From a virus, in IMG/VR virus record IMGVR_UViG_3300014208_000033, positions 32,001 through 96,000 of that record: a stretch of 64,000 bases of DNA; one strand, given 5' to 3'. Both the position numbers and the translations under genes were made by a program. Within the stretch, counting starts at the first letter, position 1, and each line of letters starts with the position of its first letter. Positions 1,433 to 63,316 of this stretch are shown in pieces. Below the pieces are notes generated by a model, which made no database searches, had not been told where the DNA came from, and saw only the letters and a list, made by a program, of their open reading frames with translations.

Positions 1433-4400
1433 ATGTTCGCTTGGGATGGATACTTCAACGCTTCTGCTGAACCTGATGCATCCACCCCCGTCTGGACTAA
1501 GACGGGGGTGGATCATGTCACAGCTAGCGCGAATACGTTAGTGTTCGCTAACTGTGGTACAGACCAGTGTTACTATGAGAGAACCTTTACACTCAGAGAT
1601 GATTCATTCTTCCTGTTAGACTTCAAAGCTAAGGTTGAAACTGGTCTTGTTACTAGACAAGTATGCTCATTCAACATAGTCAACTTGTTCAATCAGTTCG
1701 TTGTATTAGACATAGTTGATGGTAAGATTTTCGTCAACAGGACCGATGAGACAGTTGAGTGGTTTGAAGATGAGATCGCTTACGACACAACTTCAGACTA
1801 TGTTCACTTCCAGATAAAGTTCCTGTACACTGGTGAGTATTATGTGTTCATTGAAAACCAGTTGTTCGTAACAGGTAAGAGTACATATCAAACTCCATTC
1901 TATACAGCAAACAGAGTATTTTTCGGTAAGGTAAGCACTACAAGTGAAAATCATGAGTTCTTCATAGATGAAGTCAAATACGCTACTGTAAGTGATATCG
2001 GTGATGTGTCATCTACCTTTGCCGTTGAGGTAGATAAGACTGGTAATGAGCCTATCATAGCTATTGAGGCTCAGTTAGACTCTTCAGTTGTGAAAGAGTC
2101 ATTCGACAGTCATACGAACTTCACAGCTTATGGGAGTGCTGATACTTTATCAACTGATATAGTTACTAAAGAGCAAGGTGCTGGTGCAGTAAAGTTCAAT
2201 AAAGCAACTTCATCTGCATTAGTGAATGATGTTGTATATGATGGAGTAGCATTACCGGGTTCCTCTACACCATCATGGACTGTTGTAGGAACAGAATCAG
2301 CAAGTGTAGGAAGTGGTACATTAACTATAGCTGATTGTGGAATAGATCAGTGCATTTACAGTAAAACTATTACTCCTCTAGTAGACGGTGAAAGCTATTG
2401 GTTGAAAGCAAGAGTTTTTGTGGATGGTGGTGCCGGAAGCAATGAGAAACATTGTATTCGTTTAGGATCTTCTAAAGAAGTTGTCGTTACATTATACTGG
2501 AGTAGATTGTACATTTCTGGTACAACTGAATTAGATTATTCGGCTAACTTATCCTCAGACTTTGTTATAATCATAATAAGAGTAAAATACGATGGAACGT
2601 ACTATGTGTATCTGAATGACACTTTAATTAGAACCGGAGCCGGTCATGATCTAGCGTCCCCTGCTGTTTCATTTGGAAAATCCAAAACAGGAGTTGCACC
2701 TGCTGGTCCGGTTCCGTTTTTTATAGACTATATTGAGTACAGCAAATTAAAAGATTCGATATATTCTTCATTGAATATGTACAACGGTGCTTACTCCGGT
2801 CTTACTCGAACTAACCACTTACAGCTTACAGACTTCAACAGAGGCCGCACCTCATTCTATATCCCCGCTGTTGATCTCGCAAAGGTTTCTAAGCTGCATG
2901 TTGTGTTGGATGAGAGTACAGACCTTAGTAAGTATTCACACTATGAGAAAACGACTGGTCTTGTAGCTGGATGGAACCACTTTGACTACACCTTAGCTTC
3001 ACCTGATAATGTAGTCGGGACTCCTACAAGAGATGATATCTTGAGGTCGTTCTACTATTACGAATTTTCGCAATCTAGCGACACCTCTACTGGACTCATC
3101 ATCGACAACAACAAATACTTCTACTTTGCGGATGATACTGCTAGGTGGGCTAAGACTGATATCTTAGGGTACACCAACAACCACTTTTGGGAAGGTAGAG
3201 TCTTATCATTTGGAGCAGTTGAGCGTTCACTATCTGAGAGACGAGGGCTCTTTGACATTGGTGGTCTGTCAATCGTATTAGCTAACACAGATAAGAACTT
3301 CTTAACTAAGTACAATAAGTATGGTAGAGCCCCAGGCTTTAAGAACAAGACTATCTCAGTCAAATTGGGTTATCGTAACATTCCGTATTCTCAGTGGGAA
3401 AAGATATATGAAGGAGTCATCGAAGAGATAGGTATTGCTGGTAGGTGCTTTACTATTGATGTAGCCGACTACACCAAGATGTATTTTGATCGTGTTCCGA
3501 AGAACTTATTAGATCCTGTTGACTTTACTGCAATAGATGAAGGTGACAAATACACACCTGCACCAATAATTTATGGTGCTATTAGTGCTACGGGTGGCGC
3601 GCTTCCTACTATATATGTAGGTGAGCATGTACACACAAAGCATTACTACATCATTGCAGGTCACTATTGCAAGTCAGGAACATGCGAACTTTACGTCGAT
3701 GAGCAACTTTTTGCTTCTGGCGGAACACTCTTATATGGAGAAGGTGTAGACGAAGTAGCCATAGCTGTTTCATTCGTCGTTGACTACGATTACACGATCA
3801 ACGGCAAGAACTACTGTGTAATCGTTGTCGATGAGATAGACAATCCTGATTATGATCCAGGTACAGAAGGAAGTTTAGAACACATCAATCCGTTTGATGG
3901 TCGTGATATCACTGTTAACATCAGTGGTAAGACGATTGATGGTACTTCTGCTGGAACTCTTCTCACTGACGTAGTTGATTCGTTCTACGATTTTCTCACT
4001 GTTGAAAATCTTGTACCTGTTGCTCTTATTGACACGGTTTCATTTGCTGCAACTAAAGTGATCTTGAATCAACGAAATCAGATCATGGCAGGTGCGGTAG
4101 TTGCAGATAAATCAACTGAAGATGTTATCGAGGAAATATGTGTTTCTCATAACATCGACTTTTACTTCACTAAAGAAGGAAAGTTTGCTATAAGCACTTT
4201 CAATCCAGCTAAGTCTGACGTTACTACGAAAATAGTAACTGACGAAAGTGATATTCTTCAAAGCTCGTTCAAGATCAATCCAGGTGTTTCGATCCTTGTG
4301 AATAGAATCAGATTCCGGTATGACTACAATTACGTTAAAGAAACATGGGAGGGGTCGAATAAGTCTGAACGTCAAGAGTCAATTGATAAAGCTGGTCAGA

Positions 4401-9603: not shown

Positions 9604-11853
9604 ATGATGCGTAACTTACTGTTCTTTCTGTTAGTGATCTGTTTTGTTTCTACTGGTTTCTGTGCAGAGAAGCGACCTGATTATCTCGGTGTTAATAAGA
9701 CTGTGCTGAATGCTCAGTCTGTTCCTCCTGTTATTCTTTCAACTCCTGAGGGTATGCTTTGGTGGGATAGCGGTACTCATTCACTCAAAGGCTGGAACGG
9801 TTCAGCCTGGAAGTTAGGCAGCACCGGAACATTCAGTGATATCGAGTTATCAACCATTAGCGCGGCTGATGGTACTCTCGCTTTAACTCTCAGTAATTCA
9901 ACTGCTCTCGCTACTTTTGCTGGTGTGATTGACGTTAGCGATGTTGAAGCTGCCACCGTTTCCGCCCGCGACGGCACCCTGGCCCTGACCCTGACGAACA
10001 GCACCGGGGTCGTGGCCTTCTCCGCTACGCCCACCGGCACCAACCTGGACTTTTCCGGGACGTTGTACGGGCATACCGTCAAGGCCGACCACATCGCAGA
10101 TGAAGCCGGGACCGGCGGGCCGTCGCTCACCAACGGCGCCACGTTCGCGGGCGACCTCCTGGCGGCGACCGACAACGCTCGGGACATCGGCGTCTCAGGC
10201 ACCGAGTTCAAGACTGCATGGGTGCAGAACCTTGACGACGGGGACGGCACGGTCAGCGTGACGGCCATCCTGGCGCCCGACAGCATCGTGAGCCCCGGCA
10301 GCATCCACGGGCACGCCATCGACTCGACCGGCGACGTAACCGCTTCGGTCAACGTCGTGGCGCTGGGCGAGGTGCGGTCGAACGACTACAAGGACGATAC
10401 CGGCCACGGCGGCATGGTGCTCGACGCCGCTGGTGACGCCACGTTCCACAACAACGTGGCCGTCACGACCATGCTCGACACGCCAGACATCGAGACGGCC
10501 ACCGTGAGCGCCCGTGACGGCACCCTGGCCCTGACCCTGACGAACAGCACCGGCAACGTGGCCTTCTCCGCTACGCCCACCGGCACCAACCTGGACTTTT
10601 CCGGGACGCTGTACGCCCACACTGTGCAGGCCGACCACCTGACGAACGAGGCGGGCAACGGCGCACCGTCGAGTAACTTTAGCGGCGGGACCGGCAACGA
10701 GTTCTGGGGGGATACGGCCGGGTTGTCCTCGACAGCAGTCTACAGTACCGCGCTTGGTGGCTATGCGCTTAGGTCAACGAACGGCGACCACAACACTGCC
10801 GTTGGGCACCAATCCCTCAATGCGTCTGACGGCTCCTACAATTCGGCATTCGGCCGGATGGCACTTGAGTCGTCGCCGGGTAGCAACAACACCGCTGCCG
10901 GCTACTACGCGCTGCGTGACTCCACCGGCAGCGACAACACCTGTTTCGGCGTAAACTCCGGGACATCGGTGGTCGGTTCCAGCAACTCTAGCGTGGGCAG
11001 GTATGCGCTCAACAAGGTGACGGGAAGCGAAAACACCGCCCTGGGCTGGGGGGCCCTTTCGGAGTCAAACGGCAGCTACAACGTGGCGGCCGGCTCAAGT
11101 GCGATGAACACCTCGCCCGGTTCCAACAACGTCTCCATAGGCACGAAGTCCCTTTACTTCGCCGCAGGCAGCAACAACGTAGCCGTCGGGCACAGGGCAC
11201 TGGAGAAGGCCCCCGGGAGTAACAACACGGTCGTCGGGTACCATGTGGCAGAGCCGGCATACCGTACCGTCAACTACCTAGCCGCCCTGGGCTCGATGGC
11301 ACTGGAGGACGTCACCACCGGGGCGAGCAACCTTGCTGCCCTGGGCTACATGGCTGGCCACACCGCTACCAACCAGACCAACCAACTCTACCTCGGCGGC
11401 TGGGATGGCGGCACGCAGTACCCCCTGACGCTCAACTGGGAAACGACTGCCGTGAGCGCGAGCCTCGGTGTGCGTGTGTTCGTGAATCGCACCGAGTACA
11501 TACTTCCGCTGATGAGCACCGCAGGAACGCTTACGACCACGGGGCAGTTCGTCACGCCGAAGAAATCCGACCTCACCATCGCCACCGCTGCGATCACCGT
11601 GACCGGCGCATACCACACGATAGCGGCAGAGGGCGGCGTGGCTGACACGCTGAGCACCATCAACGGCGGCGTGGACGGCTCGCGCGTGCTGCTGCGCGGC
11701 GCGGCGGCGGTGGCTATCACGGTGGACGAGGCGGGGAACATCCTCGTGCCGGGGGCGTCCATCACCATCGACAACACGGGAGATACGGCAGAGTTCATCT
11801 ACTCGGGCGGGATTACCAAGTGGGTCATGATCAGCGCAGCGGATAACAACTAG
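9604..11853 (+). CDS. Signal-peptide-bearing fibre/adhesin with YadA-like head repeats
   Basis: MMRNLLFFLLVICFVSTGFCA; GSxNTAxG repeats; duplicated TVSARDGTLALTLTNSTG unit. Confidence 0.65.
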   Translation: MMRNLLFFLLVICFVSTGFCAEKRPDYLGVNKTVLNAQSVPPVILSTPEGMLWWDSGTHSLKGWNGSAWKLGSTGTFSDIELSTISAADGTLALTLSNSTALATFAGVIDVSDVEAATVSARDGTLALTLTNSTGVVAFSATPTGTNLDFSGTLYGHTVKADHIADEAGTGGPSLTNGATFAGDLLAATDNARDIGVSGTEFKTAWVQNLDDGDGTVSVTAILAPDSIVSPGSIHGHAIDSTGDVTASVNVVALGEVRSNDYKDDTGHGGMVLDAAGDATFHNNVAVTTMLDTPDIETATVSARDGTLALTLTNSTGNVAFSATPTGTNLDFSGTLYAHTVQADHLTNEAGNGAPSSNFSGGTGNEFWGDTAGLSSTAVYSTALGGYALRSTNGDHNTAVGHQSLNASDGSYNSAFGRMALESSPGSNNTAAGYYALRDSTGSDNTCFGVNSGTSVVGSSNSSVGRYALNKVTGSENTALGWGALSESNGSYNVAAGSSAMNTSPGSNNVSIGTKSLYFAAGSNNVAVGHRALEKAPGSNNTVVGYHVAEPAYRTVNYLAALGSMALEDVTTGASNLAALGYMAGHTATNQTNQLYLGGWDGGTQYPLTLNWETTAVSASLGVRVFVNRTEYILPLMSTAGTLTTTGQFVTPKKSDLTIATAAITVTGAYHTIAAEGGVADTLSTINGGVDGSRVLLRGAAAVAITVDEAGNILVPGASITIDNTGDTAEFIYSGGITKWVMISAADNN
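9952..10620 (+). repeat. ~120-bp intragenic direct repeat (about 9952-10075 and 10498-10620)
   Basis: Near-identical GACGGCACCCTGGCCCTGACCCTGACGAACAGCACCGG...GGACTTTTCCGGGACG in both copies. Confidence 0.85.
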
Positions 11854-25308: not shown

Positions 25309-25499
25309 TGTTCTCACCGGCTAGAGTTTCTTACTCTAGTTCTTCCAAACTTTCATAGCTTAAAGATTACTGTTGGGCTACCCATGCAATTTCGCGGTAA
25401 TGGGTTAGTTGAGTGGAACGCCTAGTTCTCAACTATTACAGAATCTTTAACTGAAAGACTAATGGCTGTTTTAGACTCATGAAACTAACGGTGAGAACA
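25309..25499 (-). ncRNA. ~190-nt structured RNA (6S-like or novel), copy 1
   Basis: 11-bp closing stem TGTTCTCACCG/CGGTGAGAACA, nested CTTTCA/TGAAAG and TTAAAGATT/AATCTTTAA stems, two apical hairpins; follows tRNA-Ser. Confidence 0.7.
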
Positions 25500-25512
25500 A
25501 GAAAATTGACTA

Positions 25513-25700: not shown

Positions 25701-25729
25701 ATAATACTCTAATCTTCAACTGGAGCCAA
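25701..25729 (-). promoter_or_regulatory. Sigma70-like promoter for the tRNA-Thr/Ser/ncRNA unit
   Basis: TTGGCT-17 bp-TATTAT. Confidence 0.6.
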
Positions 25730-39848: not shown

Positions 39849-42660
39849 TCTCTTTGTCCAAATCGTAATTAGACTTGAGTTTTAGAACAATTTTGTCCAC
39901 GGTCTTAATCAACTTACTATCAGGATGATCCTTCTGTTCACATGACTTAAACTTATCAAGTAGGATCATCCTACGATCAAAGTCAAAGTTAGTGTACTCG
40001 TAGATCATCCTGAGAGTCTTTTCCCTGTCATTCTTCTTATTGATCCTGGTCATTAGCTGCATGAATCTCTTATTCGCCTTAGCAGCTATATCGGTATCGA
40101 GACTGAGCCAAGGAAGTTCTGGAAACAAGAACTTGAAGATACTCATAACCTTTGAGTATATCTCAACATTCCAATACTCATCGAAGGCTAAAGGTTTGGT
40201 CGTAATCTTGTCCTTTGTTTCCAGGTAGTAAGATACTTCCTCGCCTTCCTTCCTGGTTCCACTTCGTTTGAGTAGAACATATTCAAGTATAGAACCGAGT
40301 TCAAAATTTTGTCCTCTAGCTCCCATTCTTTCAACGATGATAGATTGAAGTGGTTGGGACTTATATTCCCGTGCATACTTAGACACCACAACACGCTTTG
40401 TGATATCTCTGATATTATCTTTAGTCCACTTGGTATTGAAAAAGTCATCCTTAACCTTACTTATCCACTTAAAGCAATCTTCTCCTGTTGGGATTTTCGG
40501 AGACGTTAGTAACATCTCCATCATCTTCTTCTGAGTCTGAGCAGCGAGGTTAATCGTTTCACGACGAACGAACTCAAGACCCTTGATATCGATCTTGTTT
40601 TTCGTTTCACCTGATTTCCAAACAAGATTACCAGCATAACGCTTCTTAGAGACTAGAACAATTCGAGAATAGACTTTCTCGAAATCTAGCTTAACTGAAA
40701 TCTTCTTTGGGTCACAATGAAACGCTTCCTGGATCTTCTGATGAATGAACGGATGATACTCAGTCTTTAACCTAGTAGTAAGCTTATCTTCTGGATCAAC
40801 AGAAGGAGCTATTACATAATTTGAGTCCGTGTCGTTATAAATGACTTCATATCCCCCGTCTTTGAACCATTCGGAGGTCCAATGAGTGATTGTTTGACCT
40901 CCGAGACAAATGGAAGGTGGAATACAATAGTGGTAAATTCTTGCTCTGAAGTAACCCATCTGTCCGTAGACAATGTTCCCGAGAAGTTTGAATACATTGA
41001 TCATTATCTCCGTTGAAACGTACTCAGGATCTTTCTCTGATACCTTCTTCTTAATCAACTCTTCCATGTACTTCTTATACTTATTTCTCTCGTTAACGTA
41101 TGTTTCGAGAGCTTTCACAACTATCGATTGCTGATCCTTCCTGAAGAAAATAACCTCAGGAATAGTGACCTTATATGTGTGCATTACGTTGTTCTTCCTA
41201 TTCTCCTTGAAGAAATAGGTTAAGAACGTTTCGTAATGCAAAGTGAAATACTTAGATGCATGCTTATGAACTTTGACCTTGCATGCTTCAACTGCTTCTG
41301 TCTGGTCCTTATTGAAAGTGAAAACAGGAACTTTGATGTAGTCTATCTCTTTGGTATCAATACGGAACTTGATACCAGCAGCGATCAATGCATTGTAGAA
41401 CAACCGCATGATCTTCAAGTTGAGATAGGTGTAAGGACTCAGAATTTTCGGAACGGACTTATCGATCAGAGTAGCGTAGTCCTTCATCGTCAAGATGGTG
41501 TCAGGCCCCATGTTGAAGGTACGCATGATCGAGTTATAGTACCCTGAGAAGTCGAAAGTCTTTATAGGTCCGTAAATCCCAGGTTTCTTTATGAACACTC
41601 TTCCGCCTGGAGGCTTGACGAGGCGCGGTTGAATGTCTTTCTTGCTTGGTAGCCTTATGTGGTTATCCCTGGATAGACGCAAGAGGAAGGAGTCTGTGAG
41701 CTTAGAGTGAGAAGCCTTTGCGATGAAGCATCCACAGATTACAGACTGTTTGATAATCTGATCGGTGATGTGAAGCTTATCGTCAAGCTCCTTCATGAGC
41801 ATACAGTCAGTGAGGTTATACTCTACGAGCTTCTTACGGTCAGTCTGGAATAACTTCCAGATAGCGCCATGACCTCTACCTACACCTTCAGTCTTACCCT
41901 TACCGATGAACTGATTAGAGCATCTATCGAGAGAGAAAGACTCAACTTTGTCTTTGATACCACCAGTTGATACGGCTTCCTTGAACCACTCCATCATATC
42001 AACATGGTTAATGTGCCAAAGAGGAAATTTGATATCATGAACCTTGCAGCGTTCCTTGATGTAATCCCAGTCGAATGACTTTGAGTACCATCCAACTAAC
42101 ATCGTGAACTCAGCAAGTTTCTCTACAGCAGAGCGAAGCATTCGCTTTTCGTCGTCAGAGCAGAAGAAATAGCGATTACCGGAATGGTCGATAACTGAAA
42201 TAGAAAGGATTGGTTCCTTACCGATAGTGATCTCGGGATTAGTGTCCTTAGTCTCGATATCGTAGTAGCCGATGTAGTGCTTGTCAGTTATCTTGATATC
42301 ATGATCGATAACGTATCGATCACAAGAATTCAAATCTGCTTCGTAGGTCTGAATTCCCTTAGCGTTAAACTCCTCAAGTATCTGAGTCTTAGCGTCAAGA
42401 TCATCGTCATCAGGCCAAAGGTTCTTGTTCTCACAGTAGATACGAACGTAGTTACCCTCGTCCTTGAGAGACTGAATCAAATGCCCATCTTTGAAATCGT
42501 TGATGAGATCCTTGTGAGCGGTGTAATCATCCTTGGAGATACAGAAATACCAAGGGAATTGATCGGATGAGATTCGATCTTCGATTATTCGGTTTCCTTG
42601 GAGTCTATAGAGGATGATTGTGTCTTTATAGACTTTTCCGTTGAAGTATTCCCGGTCCAT
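39838..42660 (-). CDS. DNA polymerase family B
   Basis: Exo DIET, FD, YN..D; Pol DFSGYYNS, KLLGNIVYG, YNDTDS, KKRY, KGLE. Confidence 0.92.
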   Translation of the reverse strand: MDREYFNGKVYKDTIILYRLQGNRIIEDRISSDQFPWYFCISKDDYTAHKDLINDFKDGHLIQSLKDEGNYVRIYCENKNLWPDDDDLDAKTQILEEFNAKGIQTYEADLNSCDRYVIDHDIKITDKHYIGYYDIETKDTNPEITIGKEPILSISVIDHSGNRYFFCSDDEKRMLRSAVEKLAEFTMLVGWYSKSFDWDYIKERCKVHDIKFPLWHINHVDMMEWFKEAVSTGGIKDKVESFSLDRCSNQFIGKGKTEGVGRGHGAIWKLFQTDRKKLVEYNLTDCMLMKELDDKLHITDQIIKQSVICGCFIAKASHSKLTDSFLLRLSRDNHIRLPSKKDIQPRLVKPPGGRVFIKKPGIYGPIKTFDFSGYYNSIMRTFNMGPDTILTMKDYATLIDKSVPKILSPYTYLNLKIMRLFYNALIAAGIKFRIDTKEIDYIKVPVFTFNKDQTEAVEACKVKVHKHASKYFTLHYETFLTYFFKENRKNNVMHTYKVTIPEVIFFRKDQQSIVVKALETYVNERNKYKKYMEELIKKKVSEKDPEYVSTEIMINVFKLLGNIVYGQMGYFRARIYHYCIPPSICLGGQTITHWTSEWFKDGGYEVIYNDTDSNYVIAPSVDPEDKLTTRLKTEYHPFIHQKIQEAFHCDPKKISVKLDFEKVYSRIVLVSKKRYAGNLVWKSGETKNKIDIKGLEFVRRETINLAAQTQKKMMEMLLTSPKIPTGEDCFKWISKVKDDFFNTKWTKDNIRDITKRVVVSKYAREYKSQPLQSIIVERMGARGQNFELGSILEYVLLKRSGTRKEGEEVSYYLETKDKITTKPLAFDEYWNVEIYSKVMSIFKFLFPELPWLSLDTDIAAKANKRFMQLMTRINKKNDREKTLRMIYEYTNFDFDRRMILLDKFKSCEQKDHPDSKLIKTVDKIVLKLKSNYDLDKENDT

Positions 42661-49484: not shown

Positions 49485-49787
49485 TGGTCCCGGCTCCCGA
49501 ATTCGAATCGGGACGGTTGTTTAGACCGAGGGATTTTCTTACCACTATGATTTTCATCACCGCAAGACTCTTGCGTTTGTGGTCTGGACTATACCTTCAC
49601 CCTAATATTAGGGGCGAGCCGTCTAGTCTCTACACATTCCCATTACTTTACAGTAATGGTTAGCTCGGTGTTACCTCGAATTTTATCAGGGGGTTCACCG
49701 AATTTGACTCGATTCACTCTTAGAATTACTTCTAAGGTGCTCAAAATAAATCAAGTCCCCTGCGTCTACCAATTTCGCCAAGCCGGG
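49485..49787 (-). tRNA. trnL: tRNA-Leu(UAA) split by a group I intron (exons 49753-49787 and 49485-49537)
   Basis: CCCGGCT/AGCCGGG acceptor stem, spliced anticodon arm GGGGA-CTTAAAA-TCCCT, CCA end. Confidence 0.92.
49538..49752 (-). mobile_element. ORF-less group I intron (IC3, trnL-type), 215 nt
   Basis: Inserted at U^AA; P AAATTCGGTGAA, Q AACACCGAGC, R GTAGAGACTAGACGG, S GAAGGTATAGTCC; terminal G. Confidence 0.9.
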
Positions 49788-50263: not shown

Positions 50264-50301
50264 CTTGATCTTCCTGTGTCTACCAATTCCACCAATTCGC
50301 C
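50264..50301 (-). pseudogene. Orphan 5' half of a tRNA-Leu-like gene fused to the HNH start
   Basis: GGCGAATTGGTGGAATTGGTAGACACAGGAAGATCAAG then ATG; no matching 3' half seen. Confidence 0.6.
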
Positions 50302-50316
50302 ACGTTTAGAACTAAG

Positions 50317-50501
50317 TTGTTTGCACTAGCTAGAATTTTCATCTAGCGAAGTAGGTTTCCTTTGAATAATCTACTGTAGTTTAATAGCCAATAACGGCTC
50401 CCTTTAATGTAAATAATTAAAGGGTTACAAATCATTCAAGAGCTAGTTCACATCTAGCCTACTTCTTAACTAGCCTCCCCGTAACCGGATAGTGCAAACA
50501 A
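50317..50501 (-). ncRNA. ~185-nt structured RNA, copy 2
   Basis: 12-bp closing stem TTGTTTGCACTA/TAGTGCAAACAA, GAAGTAGG/CCTACTTC, TTGAATGATTT/AGATTATTCAA, two apical hairpins; follows tRNA-Lys. Confidence 0.7.
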
Positions 50502-50516
50502 GAATTGAATTAGGTA

Positions 50517-50587
50517 TGGGTCCGGCGGAAATCGAATCCGCATCAAAAGATTAAAAATCTTCTCGTCTACCATTGACATACGGACCC
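50517..50587 (-). tRNA. tRNA-Lys(UUU), CCA not encoded
   Basis: GGGTCCG/CGGACCC acceptor stem; GAAGA-TTTTTAA-TCTTT arm. Confidence 0.9.
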
Positions 50588-50686: not shown

Positions 50687-50715
50687 ATTATACCATGCGC
50701 GTCAATTGTAGTCAA
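50687..50715 (-). promoter_or_regulatory. Strong sigma70-type promoter for the tRNA-Lys unit
   Basis: TTGACT-17 bp-TATAAT with extended TG. Confidence 0.8.
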
Positions 50716-57200: not shown

Positions 57201-59777
57201 CCACCAAAATCTTTGTCATACTTACTAAAATCACAATTGATGTTATCTCTAAGGGCTCGAAGCATTCCAGTCACACTTTGAATAGTATACTGAAAAGCGA
57301 AGTTACCGTATTTCTTCTCCTTAACGCAAGAGGTAATGCTCTCACACTCACGATAGATACGGTCGATAGCGTTGTAAATGTTATAGGGAATCTTCATAGT
57401 CAGTCTGCTCCTGTTCGTATCCGTAGTTGTAATCCAGTCTTACAGCATGAAACAAATCTCTGATCATCTTAACATGAATATTCAACTCAATCTCTTTTGG
57501 GTGCTCCTTCTTAATATCTTCACAAAGGACTTGCAGCTTGTTGTCTATTTCATTAAAAAAATCATTGATAGTGTAGTCGTGTTTCATAATCACTCATCCT
57601 CATCTGGAATAGCATTGTCACTATTGTAGTGCTCGTTTTCTATCTTAGAAGTATTGGCAATCTTGGTTAAAATTCCAACGACATTCTTAAGAGAAGAAGC
57701 AACCTCACCTTCATTATTGATATATGCAACACCAGACAGGATATTAGTCTCCCTACAGATTCTTAGAAGATCACGCTTGAATTCATGCTCATAAACCATA
57801 TCAATCGTCCTCCCCGTCTTTAGCATAGTGCATACTCTTCATCGTTTCCTTGAGTCTCGTATTCCTATTCAGTTCCTCGTACAACTCATCCTCTAGCTGA
57901 AATATCTTCTTAATCAACTCCTCTTTCGAGCGTTTCATAAGGTCTATTACAACTTGATCTTTCATATCAAGTTCAATCCTACTCATCGCTAACATTCCTT
58001 CCTTCTATCAACACGTCGCAAGAGGCTATGATCATCTTCAGAGCAGTAATGAATTCTCCATCACACTTGGGATCATTCTCAGTATGAACAAGAACACCCC
58101 TGAGTTCATTCACAGCTACACAGAACTCGTAGTTAATACGTCTCGATATGTTCATTCAGTTTCACACAACCATTCAATATGCTTAAGCAACACATGCTCA
58201 ACTTCAGTAGGAATTCTCTTCTCAGTCGTTCCATCTTCATAGAATATCTTAATCAGGTCAGGTTCTCCAACGTCAACTATAAGAGTAGCATGAGCAATCT
58301 TACTCATCTTCTGGATCTCCTGAATTTACACCATTACTAATGTCTTGAAAAAAGTTTCCGATATTTCGTAAAGTGGAGTTAAGTACATAGTTATCAGGAT
58401 GCTCATCTTCTGCAATACGAATTAGAGAGAAAATAACACCACAAAGAGCATCGAGTTTCTTTTCAAATCTCTTAGAGCACTTAAAGTAACTCACTTCTCA
58501 CTCTCCAAGCAATCAAACAATCCTTGAATCAGTTCAGATATCGTTCTTACAATAAGTCGAAGAGGAAGATTGTTTGGTTGTTCACGGTCAACGGTATTAA
58601 GCAAGTTTACTGCCATCATACACATGATATCTACTTCTTTTGCAAATCCCTCAGAACACTTCATTCGTACCCTCCCACTCATCACAAAACCTATCACAAG
58701 TCATATCTCTTACAGCTTCATCGTAGTGATCCTTAGCACATTCCAACTTCCTAGAAAGTCTCCTGGCTACATCTATGCTGATCTTAATGTCGGTGTTCCT
58801 GTTGTCCAAAGGGTGATCCAGAATAGCTAACATGAGTATCTCAATGTCAGTTTTCTTAGTCATCGTCACTCCTCTTACAATCTTCCTTGTGGTGCATAGT
58901 TCTCATCATCTCTTTGAGCCTAGTAACTTCATTCAGTTCGTTGTACAACTCATCTTCCAGGTCAAGTATCTTCTGAATGAGTTCACCCCTATCAGCATTC
59001 CGAAATCTATCAAGGTCAGATAGACTTATATCACTCATCCTCAGTCTCCCTGATATCACAATCATCATGCATACCTTGAAGAGTGTACTCCATCGTTTTC
59101 AGAATATTCGTAAACTCAACCAACCCTTGCGAACGAGCCGAAGCCGCAAGGGATCTGGCATTTCTCATCATGTTCCAAAGCTCAGACTTAAAGAGGTCGT
59201 CACACATGCTCATATGTCACCACATCTTCTCAGGTCCGAGTATCTTTTCTATCTCTTTGATCTTCCTAGAAAGATCCATTAACTCTCTGCAAAGAAGTCT
59301 ATTCTCAGTTTTAAGCTGTGAATTTTCTTCTTTGAGTTCGCTCTTAGTAAGCTCTTTCTTAGTCATAATCTATATCACTTTCTTCTGAAACTTTTACATA
59401 TACCAACAATTCTTCTGCTTCATCAATTGTGAACTCGACATAAGGAGTAGAAATACTGTGTTTATAATCATCGATAGCTTTTTCAATGACTTTACTCAGC
59501 AAACGTCTAGTCATTTCGAGTTCTCCCTATCACAAGTTTCCCTAGCTTCCTGTTCATCAGCGAAGCACTCACTATCACACCGAATGAACACTTCTTCAAC
59601 ACCAGTCATATTGTACTTAATACCAAGAGAGTCAATAGTTATCCTCGTAACTCTCCCACTCTTAACCTTCATCTTAGTAACAACACTCACATGCCCGCAA
59701 AGCTTGCAAGTTTCCTCGACATTATGACTAGGAGTAAGAACCCAAAGAGTATCACCGATATTAACCATTTTTCTCAC
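54243..59777 (-). CDS. Dense run of about 20 small hypothetical genes (early/host-takeover type)
   Basis: Overlapping ATGA junctions, GGAG RBSs, internal paralogues. Confidence 0.6.
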
Positions 59778-60241
59778 TTCCCCTTTATCGTCATGCTCTT
59801 ATCAAGAGAAACAGCTATCCCCATGATATCACCGCAAAGGTATTGGTTGGCTATATACCTAGCAAACCTCATCCCCATTATCTTGAATCGCTGTTTGAAT
59901 TTCTTACCATGTCCCACATACGGATGAACCAACACATGGCACAACTCATGGATATAAGACTCACACACTTCCATGAAAGTAGTGTCACCAATATCAAGAC
60001 CTATATGAAAAATACTATCCTTCTCATTATAAACACAGTAACCAGCAGCATCGACACTCTTGTTTCCTCTTCTTATTGGTATCGTCGATCTATGAAATCC
60101 AACCACTATCTTGCTCTGATGCTTCCTTCTCTTATACACGTCGTTGAACTGCTTTTCAATAACCTCAAGCGGTCCCATTGTGTTCCTCCAGTTTTCCGAA
60201 AATTCGTAAAAAGACACCCCGAAAATAAGCATCTGGATCAT
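59774..60241 (-). CDS. SprT-like zinc metalloprotease
   Basis: AAGYC, HELCH......HGKKF. Confidence 0.75.
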   Translation of the reverse strand: MIQMLIFGVSFYEFSENWRNTMGPLEVIEKQFNDVYKRRKHQSKIVVGFHRSTIPIRRGNKSVDAAGYCVYNEKDSIFHIGLDIGDTTFMEVCESYIHELCHVLVHPYVGHGKKFKQRFKIMGMRFARYIANQYLCGDIMGIAVSLDKSMTIKGK

Positions 60242-60419
60242 GAGTTAGACACTTAGAGCATCTACTAGCATCTTGACCCTTAAGAAGTACTCCACGCTAT
60301 CAATTCATAACTTGCCTTCCGGCTCTAAACCGTGTTGCCTTGCGGTACTTCTCATTTACCTTCGGAATCCAGCCTCTTTTCTTTTCTTCGTCTTACCGAA
60401 CGGAGAGAGGAAAATACGC

Positions 60420-61375
60420 TTCGCGGCGCCAGCCGCGATGGGGAGAGTGTGAGAGGGGAGGCGTTAAGCCTCCTCTTTCACTAGCAGCTATTCAGAATTT
60501 TCGGAACCGTCATAGATTGTCGCCTCACAATCTCTTGCGGTTCTTCCTATTCTATAGAAGCTGCTTTGCTCTAAGGAGATGAGTCATCTCGCTTAATTCA
60601 GTGAACTTTCCACCTGATTGATCTCAATCATCAGAAAGTCAGATAGACGCACTTCAAGATCCTGCATCTTAGGATAGGGATCTCGCTATCGATTTCCATA
60701 CCCTAAACTTGATCCAGTTGCAACCTCCTCCGAATTACGAATATTCGGAAGTATGCAGACTCCACCACGATAAGGCTCTGCTGTTCCTTATCGACCGCGC
60801 TTATCTAGTTTCGCGCGCCCATGCAACGAGTAACGAGTTCGTGTTGAAGGGGGCTTCATCTTCGACCAATAAAGTTGTGGTAATCCACCCGCAGAGATGC
60901 TATGTTTAGATCGTAAGTAACAAAGCATCTCCGCACTCAAGGACGAGGCTAATCTACGCCTTACGGCAGGACATTATACCAGAGAAGTCTTAAACCCTAC
61001 GTCTAACTGGACTATCGTTAGATTTCGAATATACGACTATTCAGTGAAGGCTTCGCTTAGTGACCTCAACGCTGAAGATTACTTACTAGGTATTTTGGCG
61101 GGAGCTACCCACTCTCCAGCTAAACCACTTTACTAAGCCTCCGAATGAACGTGTCCTAATGTCCTCTTAGCACCCCATCACAGTGAAAACCTTATCTAGC
61201 CACAGGTCTATTTACCTCTAGCTTGATCTTCCGGCCTCGAATCAGTAGGCTAGGTTCACTCTCTTGCGATTAGCTACTCCCGCAAGATCATTACCCTTTT
61301 GCAATGCAGCTACCTATCTACACCGTATTCATCAACAACGGGCTTGATCCATTTCTGGACGTGGCTTGCCCGTCA
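60420..61375 (-). ncRNA. Candidate large structured ncRNA (~950 nt)
   Basis: No credible ORF; about a dozen nested stems; promoter at 61381-61409. Confidence 0.5.
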
Positions 61376-61380
61376 AGGAG

Positions 61381-61448
61381 ATAATACATTAGAGGAGTAA
61401 TGTTAGCAACAAGTTTCTTTTGTCTTTATTTTACTAACATTGTATTAT
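61381..61448. promoter_or_regulatory. Back-to-back divergent promoters
   Basis: Minus strand: TTGCTA-17-TATTAT (61409-61381); plus strand: TTGTCT-17-TATTAT (61420-61448). Confidence 0.7.
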
Positions 61449-61470
61449 ACATGTAGGAGGTTCTTGTTAT

Positions 61471-62664
61471 ATGATTGAAAAAGTATCTGAGTTAAAACAT
61501 AAGTTAGGGAACTACTTTAGCACTAGACGTAAGATTGGTAAAATCTTATATGCTGGGCGTTACTATAATATGAAATCTTGGAATGATAATGGTTTCATTA
61601 AGCTTCAAGTTCATCTAGGATTAAAGAGTCTCATTTTAACTATCTTAACTGAGCACAGCGAAGAAGTATTAGAAGAAACAATGACTCGTTTCTCTAAGAA
61701 CTCTAACCCTACTCCCTTTATACAAAGCCTTAGTTCAAGGATACTAACAGGTAAGAAGCCTAAAACTTGGAGGTCTAGTGCAAATTTCCAACCTGTTATT
61801 AGGATAGTCAATACACCGAAAGTTCAAAAGAACTACGTTGGAAACAAACCAAACATAGAATTCTTGAACAAGTTTGATGAACACTTTGGAGTCTCTACTC
61901 ATAGGCTTATCAGAAGCCTAATTATGTTCTATTCAAGTTTGTCTTTGAAGAATCGTTTCAATGATGGTATCGTAACAACCTTCTTAGATGATAAGAAGGT
62001 TGACTTGAAAGACAACGATACTCAATACGAAATCTACAAGAAAATCTATGATGAGTTCAACGATCCATTTGTACTTAGGTTAGCTCTAACCCCTCAGTAT
62101 CATTTCAGATATCAGGGAGTGAACTTCAACGGCTTCTTTGAACTACTTAGGTCTATCTACACTAGGATCTATTCACCTAAACCTAGAGGTCAGCAGTACG
62201 GTATAGTTGATAGAGCTACTTACAAGCAACTTGTAGAGCGTCTTAACAACATCAAGGGTGATGTTAATAAGATGATGCACTTCATGAAGTTATCTGCTGC
62301 TTACTCTATCTGGTTATCTAAGTCCAAGGGTATTGAACTCATCGTAGATAAGTCTCAGTTCCTCATTGACGATAAGTTCAATCTAGGTGTATGCTTCTTA
62401 GAGCAACGCCGAATGTTCGATCCGTTCCCAATCGAAGACCTCAAGGAAATGCTCTCTTGCGGTTACTTCTATAACCCTTGGGAGTATCTACATAATATAC
62501 TCTTGGGCTCATCACCTAAGAGTATTGCTTATCTTGGTAATTTTAGGAAGATCAAGTACCAGTTACAGTTGGATAGATTGGATGCTAAGAGTGAAAAAGA
62601 AAGAGTGCAAAGCGATAGTTCCGTCAAAGAAGGATCTAGCAGTATTCAAACCGTCTCTGTTTGA
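61471..62664 (+). CDS. Hypothetical protein, 397 aa
   Basis: RBS AGGAGG with its own promoter; no motif recognised. Confidence 0.7.
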   Translation: MIEKVSELKHKLGNYFSTRRKIGKILYAGRYYNMKSWNDNGFIKLQVHLGLKSLILTILTEHSEEVLEETMTRFSKNSNPTPFIQSLSSRILTGKKPKTWRSSANFQPVIRIVNTPKVQKNYVGNKPNIEFLNKFDEHFGVSTHRLIRSLIMFYSSLSLKNRFNDGIVTTFLDDKKVDLKDNDTQYEIYKKIYDEFNDPFVLRLALTPQYHFRYQGVNFNGFFELLRSIYTRIYSPKPRGQQYGIVDRATYKQLVERLNNIKGDVNKMMHFMKLSAAYSIWLSKSKGIELIVDKSQFLIDDKFNLGVCFLEQRRMFDPFPIEDLKEMLSCGYFYNPWEYLHNILLGSSPKSIAYLGNFRKIKYQLQLDRLDAKSEKERVQSDSSVKEGSSSIQTVSV

Positions 62665-63232
62665 CAAGATCGATGAGAAGAAAATCTCTAACTACATAGC
62701 GATCATCAAGCAAATGGAAACTAACAACTTAGAAGATAAGCGCATCTGCACCGTGTTAGGTTTAACTCAAGCCCACCTCGACCTTTTGCGGTCTAGTCCT
62801 GATTACGATAGTACCTTTATGACGAACGTAGACGACCCGGCAGAGGCTATCAGACAATCAATGCAGAACACCGCTATAAAGGCTTCTGAGCAATTGGAGA
62901 GGCTTGTAGCGCAAGGGGATATGGATGCTATCAAGGTGGCACTGAAATCAGTTGGTGCTGACAAACCTGCTGAAACTCAAATGGCAGACACCACTAAGTT
63001 TTTCCTGGATTTGCTTGGTAAGATCGGGATCAAATCGCACGATAGAAAAGCGAGCGATCAGATTGAACAGTTGAAGTCAAAGAAGAAAGATGCGAAGTCT
63101 GAAGATCAGTTAGCCGACGAAAAGATCATGGATGCGGAGTATGAGATTTTAGGTGACGACGATGTTGATGAGGGTCTAAAGGAAGAGGTTCCCGTAAAGA
63201 AGCAGAGCGACATGGAAGACACCGAAGACTAG
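62582..63232 (+). CDS. HTH protein with acidic tail, terminase small subunit-like
   Basis: ICTVLGLTQAHL HTH, helical middle, DAEYE acidic C-terminus. Confidence 0.4.
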   Translation: MLRVKKKECKAIVPSKKDLAVFKPSLFDKIDEKKISNYIAIIKQMETNNLEDKRICTVLGLTQAHLDLLRSSPDYDSTFMTNVDDPAEAIRQSMQNTAIKASEQLERLVAQGDMDAIKVALKSVGADKPAETQMADTTKFFLDLLGKIGIKSHDRKASDQIEQLKSKKKDAKSEDQLADEKIMDAEYEILGDDDVDEGLKEEVPVKKQSDMEDTED

Positions 63233-63283: not shown

Positions 63284-63316
63284 AAGGCCCCCGGATTTCC
63301 GGGGGCCTTTTTGTTT
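63284..63316 (+). terminator. Intrinsic terminator
   Basis: AAGGCCCCCGGA-TT-TCCGGGGGCCTT followed by a T-tract. Confidence 0.85.

Follow-up and report, generated by a model that had tools for sequence, protein, structure and literature searches.

A putative ~960-nt structured ncRNA at an ORF-free locus of a large lytic-type phage

The window analysed here is a 64,000-nt stretch of DNA, bases 32001-96000 of a 107,668-bp IMG/VR virus record with an estimated completeness of 71%. Positions are those of the window unless a G000 prefix is given. The record represents a large lytic-type phage that encodes a family-B DNA polymerase, a ribonucleotide reductase, tRNAs and a group I intron (49568-49762, found by Rfam scan), and a rough count puts its coding density at 93%. 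Against 50,697 phage records its DNA polymerase reaches no more than 25% identity, with T4-type polymerases at only about 25%, while the nearest polymerase among 5.8 billion proteins (47% identity) lies on a 12-kb contig. The lineage is very far from cultured phages and very sparsely sampled. A second assembly, of 107,578 bp, is near-identical to the record. The locus of interest lies between two divergently oriented genes and contains the following features:

59774-60178, minus strand: weakly SprT-like gene of 134 aa, the first gene downstream of the candidate RNA (PF10263, E 2e-4, below the Pfam cut-off; phrog_6361)
60411-60438, minus strand: terminator-like hairpin UCGCGGC-UGGC-GCCGCGA, then AGCGUAUUUU; the U-run is weak
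60411-61374, minus strand: candidate structured ncRNA of ~960 nt, from the predicted start to the end of the U-run, with many helices above 0.85 pair probability
61381-61409, minus strand: sigma-70-type promoter, -35 TTGCTA at 61409-61404, 17-nt spacer, -10 gTATTAT at 61386-61381
61420-61448, plus strand: divergent promoter of the 397-aa gene, TTGTCT-17-TATTAT, then ACATGTAGGAGG
61471-62664, plus strand: orphan 397-aa gene (P0001) facing the candidate RNA, no family
63287-63310, no strand assigned: strong bidirectional intrinsic terminator, recognised from sequence, ending the plus-strand island and the minus-strand genes that come from the right

The most probable start codon of the SprT-like gene, the ATG at 60178, is preceded by a GGAGG ribosome-binding site (RBS). 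The plus-strand genes at the locus form a 1.8-kb island rather than a genome-scale strand switch, and genes to the right of the 63287-63310 terminator are on the minus strand again. In addition to the 397-aa gene, the island carries a plus-strand ORF of ~175 aa in another frame (62640-63232), which has an acidic C-terminus and no family; its long frame overlaps the end of the 397-aa gene, and both are closed by the same bidirectional terminator.

The interval that separates the SprT-like and 397-aa genes is non-coding by five independent tests. Under table 11, all ORFs in 60179-61470 are of 80 aa or less, in line with the ORF-free stretch noted in the first-pass annotation. That annotation called it the only ORF-free kilobase, which is true within the window but not for the genome, as G000 1170-2250 (outside the window) is another. 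The two stretches show no similarity, so they are not paralogous. Translation under table 4 (TGA as sense) or with TAG read as glutamine opened no convincing ORF in 60179-61470, and no start codon on either strand of this interval combines a Shine-Dalgarno sequence 4-11 nt upstream with at least 15 codons; the phage's genes use strong Shine-Dalgarno sites. Dicodon scoring, with the long genes of this phage as training set, gave zero or below in all six frames over 60300-61499 and clearly positive values in both flanking genes. Finally, seven stop-to-stop frames gave no match to Pfam or PHROGs, and thus no protein-family remnant. The region was also correctly described as richer in GC than its flanks. 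Its G+C content is 0.45-0.48, compared to 0.36-0.43 on the left and 0.31-0.37 on the right, a rise of 6-10 points over the flanks that fits a structured RNA in an AT-rich genome.

The region folds better than chance, and this excess is both strong and validated by controls. On the minus strand, the 986-nt sequence has a minimum free energy (MFE) of -350.4 kcal/mol (z -5.68; 0 of 20 shuffles as good), compared to z-scores of -0.32 and -0.38 for two coding controls of equal length from this strand. Thirteen 150-nt windows over 61420 to 60371 average a z of about -1.9, and 16 adjacent coding windows average -0.34. When 300-nt windows across the genome were regressed on G+C, the window at 60401 came top for the plus strand and sixth for the minus strand. 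All ten stems named in the first-pass annotation were recovered by MFE or pair probability, most of them at a probability of 0.85-0.99. The predicted minus-strand architecture has the following parts, listed from the 5' end of the transcript:

61337-61374, minus strand: 5'-terminal hairpin GACGGGC...GCCCGUU, pair probabilities 0.92-0.93, beginning at about +1 of the predicted transcript
60822-61303, minus strand: large multibranched central domain, pair probabilities 0.76-0.96, predicted from one sequence only
60891-60934, minus strand: near-perfect 15-bp hairpin GCGGAGAUGCU.UGUU / AACA.AGCAUCUCUGC with a 12-nt loop (inverted repeat I2; base-pair probabilities)
60446-60595, minus strand: 3' domain of three stable hairpins, MFE -60.8 kcal/mol, z -7.36, the most strongly structured part
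60179-60410, minus strand: poorly structured spacer up to the SprT-like RBS (z +0.45, -1.3 and +0.67)

The 5'-terminal hairpin encloses an inner GUCCA-GAAA-UGGAU stem with a GNRA loop. Long-range helices are predicted to close the central domain (61296-61288/60836-60828, 61176-61173/60852-60849 and 61165-61157/60976-60968). The 3' domain includes an 83-nt hairpin at 60483-60565, and its MFE structure accounts for 26% of the ensemble. The folding excess is uneven: outside 60446-60595 local z-scores are modest (-0.1 to -2.9), and this remainder consists of many moderate hairpins together with the predicted long-range helices.

Folding energies do not decide which strand is the RNA. The plus strand, too, has significant structure (z -4.6), and the 3' domain folds slightly better as plus strand (-66.8 vs -60.8), so this domain alone does not tell the strand. 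A strand call from G-U/A-C asymmetry was tried and proved uninformative, because controls show the same base-composition effect. Assignment to the minus strand instead rests on the promoter and the terminator tail.

The promoter at 61409-61381 had been proposed in the first-pass annotation. It matches at only 9 of 12 positions in a generic promoter scan, yet it is a member of a recurrent class in this phage, TTGnnn-N17-gTATTAT, with eight clear copies:

Window positions 25706, 30929, 39449, 50692, 61386 (minus) and 61443 (plus): promoter-class copies
G000 positions 11369 and 26634: promoter-class copies

The copy at 25706 sits 28 nt upstream of a tRNA, and that at 50692 is upstream of tRNA-Lys. 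Across the more relaxed pattern TTG-N16-18-TATWAT there are 13 sites, compared to about 6 expected by chance. In the mRNA promoters of the class, the -10 box often directly precedes ACATGTAGGAGG, the RBS, which leaves an mRNA leader of only a few bases. The divergent promoter of the 397-aa gene has this arrangement, and its -10 and RBS block is identical to that of the G000 11369 copy. Unlike its siblings, the 61409-61381 promoter does not run into an RBS; its transcription start is predicted near 61374 and it runs into the hairpin at +1. An inverted repeat, AATGTTAGCAA / TTACTAACATT at 61399-61409 / 61431-61441, covers the minus-strand -35 box and the plus-strand spacer, and may be a shared operator of the two divergent promoters.

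The 61409-61381 promoter is the only recognised source of minus-strand transcripts at the locus. The terminator at 63287-63310 implies that minus-strand transcription must restart at this promoter, and a search of the minus strand from 61386 to 50692, the 230-nt spacer included, gave no further member of the promoter class. At the other end, the U-run that follows the hairpin at 60438-60421 is present on the minus strand only. It is short, and its weakness makes read-through likely. The phage's usual terminators carry a CACATGATGCAAAAAACC lead-in that this one does not have, and the transcript may therefore have no sharply defined 3' end. Those usual terminators are cassettes in which the lead-in precedes hairpins of variable sequence (7-8 copies, one at G000 ~1225-1270), similar to the mobile regulatory cassettes known from T4-type phages.

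The region matches no known RNA family. A cmscan of the whole window and both genome ends against Rfam 15 at gathering thresholds found no family at the region, and recovered the phage's tRNAs and group I intron elsewhere. This check had been proposed in the first-pass annotation; extending it to E<=10 on both strands of 60100-61600 again gave no match, consistent with novelty. GOLLD (RF01998) and ROOL (RF03087) had no covariance-model match even at that threshold, and a group I or group II intron, known ribozyme, tmRNA or riboswitch as currently modelled was rejected on the same grounds. ARAGORN detected no tRNA or tmRNA over 59500-62000; the nearest tRNA is at 50517-50587, ~10 kb away. A hammerhead ribozyme was considered for the CUGAUGA heptamer at 60626-60632 and rejected, as it has no feasible stem II and no adjacent GAAA. 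We also rejected a trans-acting guide against repeated intergenic elements, as the palindrome described below is the only repeat common to the region and the rest of the genome.

A homologue search, likewise proposed earlier, found no homologue of the region in IMG/VR, JGI metagenomes, GTDB genomes, INPHARED phages or PLSDB plasmids. For the latter two this was done by blastn, with a word size of 11 for the 50,697 INPHARED records, which include T5 (AY543070). Exact scans of JGI metagenomes and IMG/VR with four RNA/promoter words returned only L186 and L187, which are chance matches in unrelated coding DNA. Queries with the 397-aa and SprT-like proteins were equally negative in IMG/VR, JGI metagenomes and GTDB genomes. 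IMG/VR contigs with multiple copies of the palindrome exist, and neither they nor IMG/VR relatives of the polymerase (at most 36% identity, from smaller phages) match the RNA or the 397-aa protein. The 112-kb NCBI contig of P0009, from the polymerase-relative search, is absent from GTDB genomes.

We propose that the region is a gene for a discrete, stable, large (~960 nt) minus-strand ncRNA that heads an early operon, and we put the probability of this reading at about 45%. Host RNA polymerase would start at the sigma-70-type promoter and would transcribe, in order, the stable 5' hairpin, the multibranched body, the three-hairpin 3' domain and the weak terminator, from which part of transcription would probably continue into the SprT-like gene and small early genes. 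Among the products of the early operon, the structured RNA would then come first and probably be the most stable; it would be released by termination or processing and act as RNA. The suggestion of a novel large RNA in the first-pass annotation gains partial support from the non-coding status, the raised G+C, the folding excess, the class promoter, the 5' hairpin, the hairpin-rich 3' end and the lack of an Rfam match; it rests on one sequence, with a strand that folding leaves unsettled. We regard the region as a well-supported candidate RNA rather than a demonstrated one.

The same transcript could instead be a long, structured 5' leader that acts in cis, controlling the SprT-like gene and the ~10 kb of minus-strand genes downstream, whether by regulated termination at the cluster of 3' hairpins or by RNA stability or processing. 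The poor U-run of the terminator is in keeping with such a leader. So is the promoter map: with the upstream minus-strand transcript stopped at 63287-63310, and with neither the spacer nor the DNA as far as 50692 offering another minus-strand promoter of the class, the downstream genes seem to depend on read-through. However, the promoter survey covered the phage's TTGnnn-N17-gTATTAT class, and promoters of other types, such as phage-specific middle or late ones, might also serve these genes. A length of 1 kb would be unusual for a leader, and the best-folded part is a stable hairpin stack with no obvious alternative anti-terminator pairing. Furthermore, the RNAX of phage T5 heads an operon and yet is a separate product. 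We consider a cis-acting leader unlikely.

Large structured RNAs of other phages provide the closest parallels for a discrete ncRNA. GOLLD, ROOL, T5 RNAX and the ICP1 lncRNA are abundant during infection, and to our knowledge none of them has a known function. These systems appear to be analogues of the candidate and not relatives. T5 rnaX (AY543070, misc_RNA 40848-41566), 719 nt long, is annotated as 'stable RNA with unknown functions' and follows promoter P16-17 directly. Like T5 RNAX, the candidate would be a non-coding RNA of kilobase order in a large lytic phage, lies directly behind a predicted host-type early promoter and would head a transcription unit that continues into further genes. 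In contrast, the two have no sequence similarity (blastn, 50,697 phage records), the phage studied here is unrelated to T5, and T5 RNAX runs directly into tRNA-Arg, whereas the candidate has no tRNA or tRNA-like element.

GOLLD and ROOL, which assemble into RNA-only cages, are large ornate RNAs found in phages and prophages (PMC12286853; PMC5737381). The candidate resembles them in being phage-borne, in its many hairpins, in a G+C content above that of its surroundings and in its size class, although GOLLD and ROOL are ~0.6-0.8 kb, compared to ~0.96 kb for the candidate, and often adjoin tRNA genes, which the candidate does not. In the Vibrio phage ICP1, a non-coding transcript of ~800 nt lies between gp139 and gp140 in a 1-kb ORF-less gap and is the most abundant transcript of that phage (PMC7567579), and lncRNAs are also found in Staphylococcus phage K (PMC9241854). 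A ~1-kb ORF-less gap in a lytic phage is common to these cases and to ours. However, the ICP1 and phage K lncRNAs were defined by RNA-seq and the candidate by sequence; there is no sequence similarity between them, and hosts and phage lineages are unrelated.

Non-functional DNA, in the form of decayed acquired genes or a recombination mosaic junction that folds with no biological role, was also considered. The G+C content differs from that of the flanks, the mosaic 397-aa gene described below suggests that recombination is active at the locus, and support for an RNA comes from one sequence. On the other hand, tightly packed lytic phage genomes such as this one rarely keep 1.2 kb of junk, no frame has protein-family similarity, and a z of -5.7, compared to about -0.35 in coding controls, is unexpected for decayed coding DNA. 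A promoter of the phage's own class also points into the region. Taken together, this explanation is quite improbable.

The last alternative places the function in the DNA: a replication origin (possibly R-loop-primed), a binding cluster for a palindrome protein, or a recombination or packaging site, with hairpins that are incidental or form DNA cruciforms. It draws on a 16-bp palindrome, TTMCGAAWWTTCGKAA, which occurs in 37 copies (at most one mismatch) in 107.7 kb, far above chance. The first-pass annotation had counted two copies here; we find three in or at the edge of the region, within 560 bp, compared to a genome mean of one per 2.9 kb:

60194-60209, no strand assigned: palindrome copy just upstream of the SprT-like RBS
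60491-60506 and 60735-60750: palindrome copies inside the candidate RNA

In the window, further examples are at 3058, 6647, 20152, 27930, 29220, 38305, 57058 and 63259, and some copies form the loop of longer terminator hairpins. Given this local enrichment, part of the region may still have a DNA-level role, but a kilobase of hairpins is left unexplained. Moreover, 34 of the 37 copies lie inside ORFs, on either strand, so the palindrome is not specific to the region.

Other features can be read in favour of a DNA element. Transcription diverges locally, the inverted repeat at 61399-61409/61431-61441 spans both promoters, the folding excess is present on both strands, and the predicted transcript contains more G than C, a bias that would promote an R-loop. 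ColE1 RNA II and the T4 oriF/oriG origin transcripts are promoter-driven and prime replication via a persistent RNA-DNA hybrid. Like these, the candidate is predicted to be a promoter-driven, structured, untranslated transcript that adjoins a divergent promoter and has more G than C. Unlike them, it lies in a region with no DNA unwinding element, and it has no homology to them. A reading of the ColE1 RNA II type would merge the RNA and origin hypotheses.

The strand divergence, however, reflects a mere 1.8-kb island, and the 397-aa neighbour has no initiator, recombinase or terminase signature. Direct repeats in the region are two-copy and at chance level, with no iterons, and no AT-rich unwinding stretch interrupts a G+C content that is 0.45-0.48 throughout and the highest locally. 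The origin or packaging region offered as an alternative in the first-pass annotation is not supported by the sequence, and an iteron-type origin here is unlikely. A far better iteron-type candidate is present at G000 1838-2007. Overall, we judge a purely DNA-level function very unlikely.

The stretch that contains this iteron-type candidate, G000 1150-2550 (equivalent to L003 1150-2550, outside the window), is the second ORF-free, G+C-rich stretch and has two palindrome copies. It carries iteron-like units, GTAACGTTCCGTTAC / GTAACGATCCATGAC, at L003 1838-2007, with three to seven GTAACGTTCCGTTAC-like copies, as well as recurrent CCTGGAGC motifs. These features make it the better origin or packaging candidate compared to 60179-61470. 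The virus record itself begins with a (CGAGC)n run.

Returning to the discrete ncRNA, its neighbour across the divergent promoters is an orphan: the 397-aa protein has no Pfam, PHROGs or PDB sequence match. Searches of 1.8-5.8 billion proteins found one close and five distant homologues. Two AlphaFold models (pLDDT 44 and 64) gave no convincing fold match by Foldseek against PDB and BFVD, and the best hit of a wide VIA-align search, a four-helix bundle at Z 6.7, is within noise. The protein has no signature of an initiator, recombinase, terminase or RNA-binding enzyme, and therefore does not discriminate between the hypotheses. Identity to its close homologue, P0002, is complete for the last ~200 residues but falls to ~45% in the N-terminal half. 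This jump in identity points to a recent recombination joint and a mosaic gene.

P0002 is encoded on a 5,256-bp Logan/ENA contig. A homologue of the SprT-like protein, P0024 (61% identity), comes from a contig of equal length in Logan/ENA, in all likelihood the same one. That the only close homologues of both neighbours are on 5,256-bp contig(s) suggests that synteny is kept in at least one relative. Since the two genes and the spacer take up 2.9 kb in this phage, there is room for the spacer on such a contig. The candidate might be the founding member of a new family of ~1-kb ornate phage RNAs with no sequence relationship to GOLLD, ROOL or T5 RNAX, kept together with a divergent orphan 397-aa family and a shared symmetric promoter region, a proposal that is tentative and on the doubtful side. 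If true, the RNA and the 397-aa protein would be a functional pair, for example a ribonucleoprotein early in infection.

Each independent family of large phage RNA adds a further test case for this class of molecules. The candidate would strengthen the view that kilobase 'ornate' RNAs are recurrent in large lytic phages and not an oddity of a few lineages. With clear predicted boundaries, a promoter that should be readable by the host polymerase and an orphan gene facing it, it is open to direct expression and probing.

Smaller untranslated stretches were also seen elsewhere in the window. Directly 3' of tRNA genes, stretches of ~185 nt lie at 50300-50520 and 25310-25510, both on the minus strand. 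They have in common a CUAGA...UCUAG hairpin and a UUGUU..CAC frame, and may be small stable RNAs like T5 RNA I-IV.
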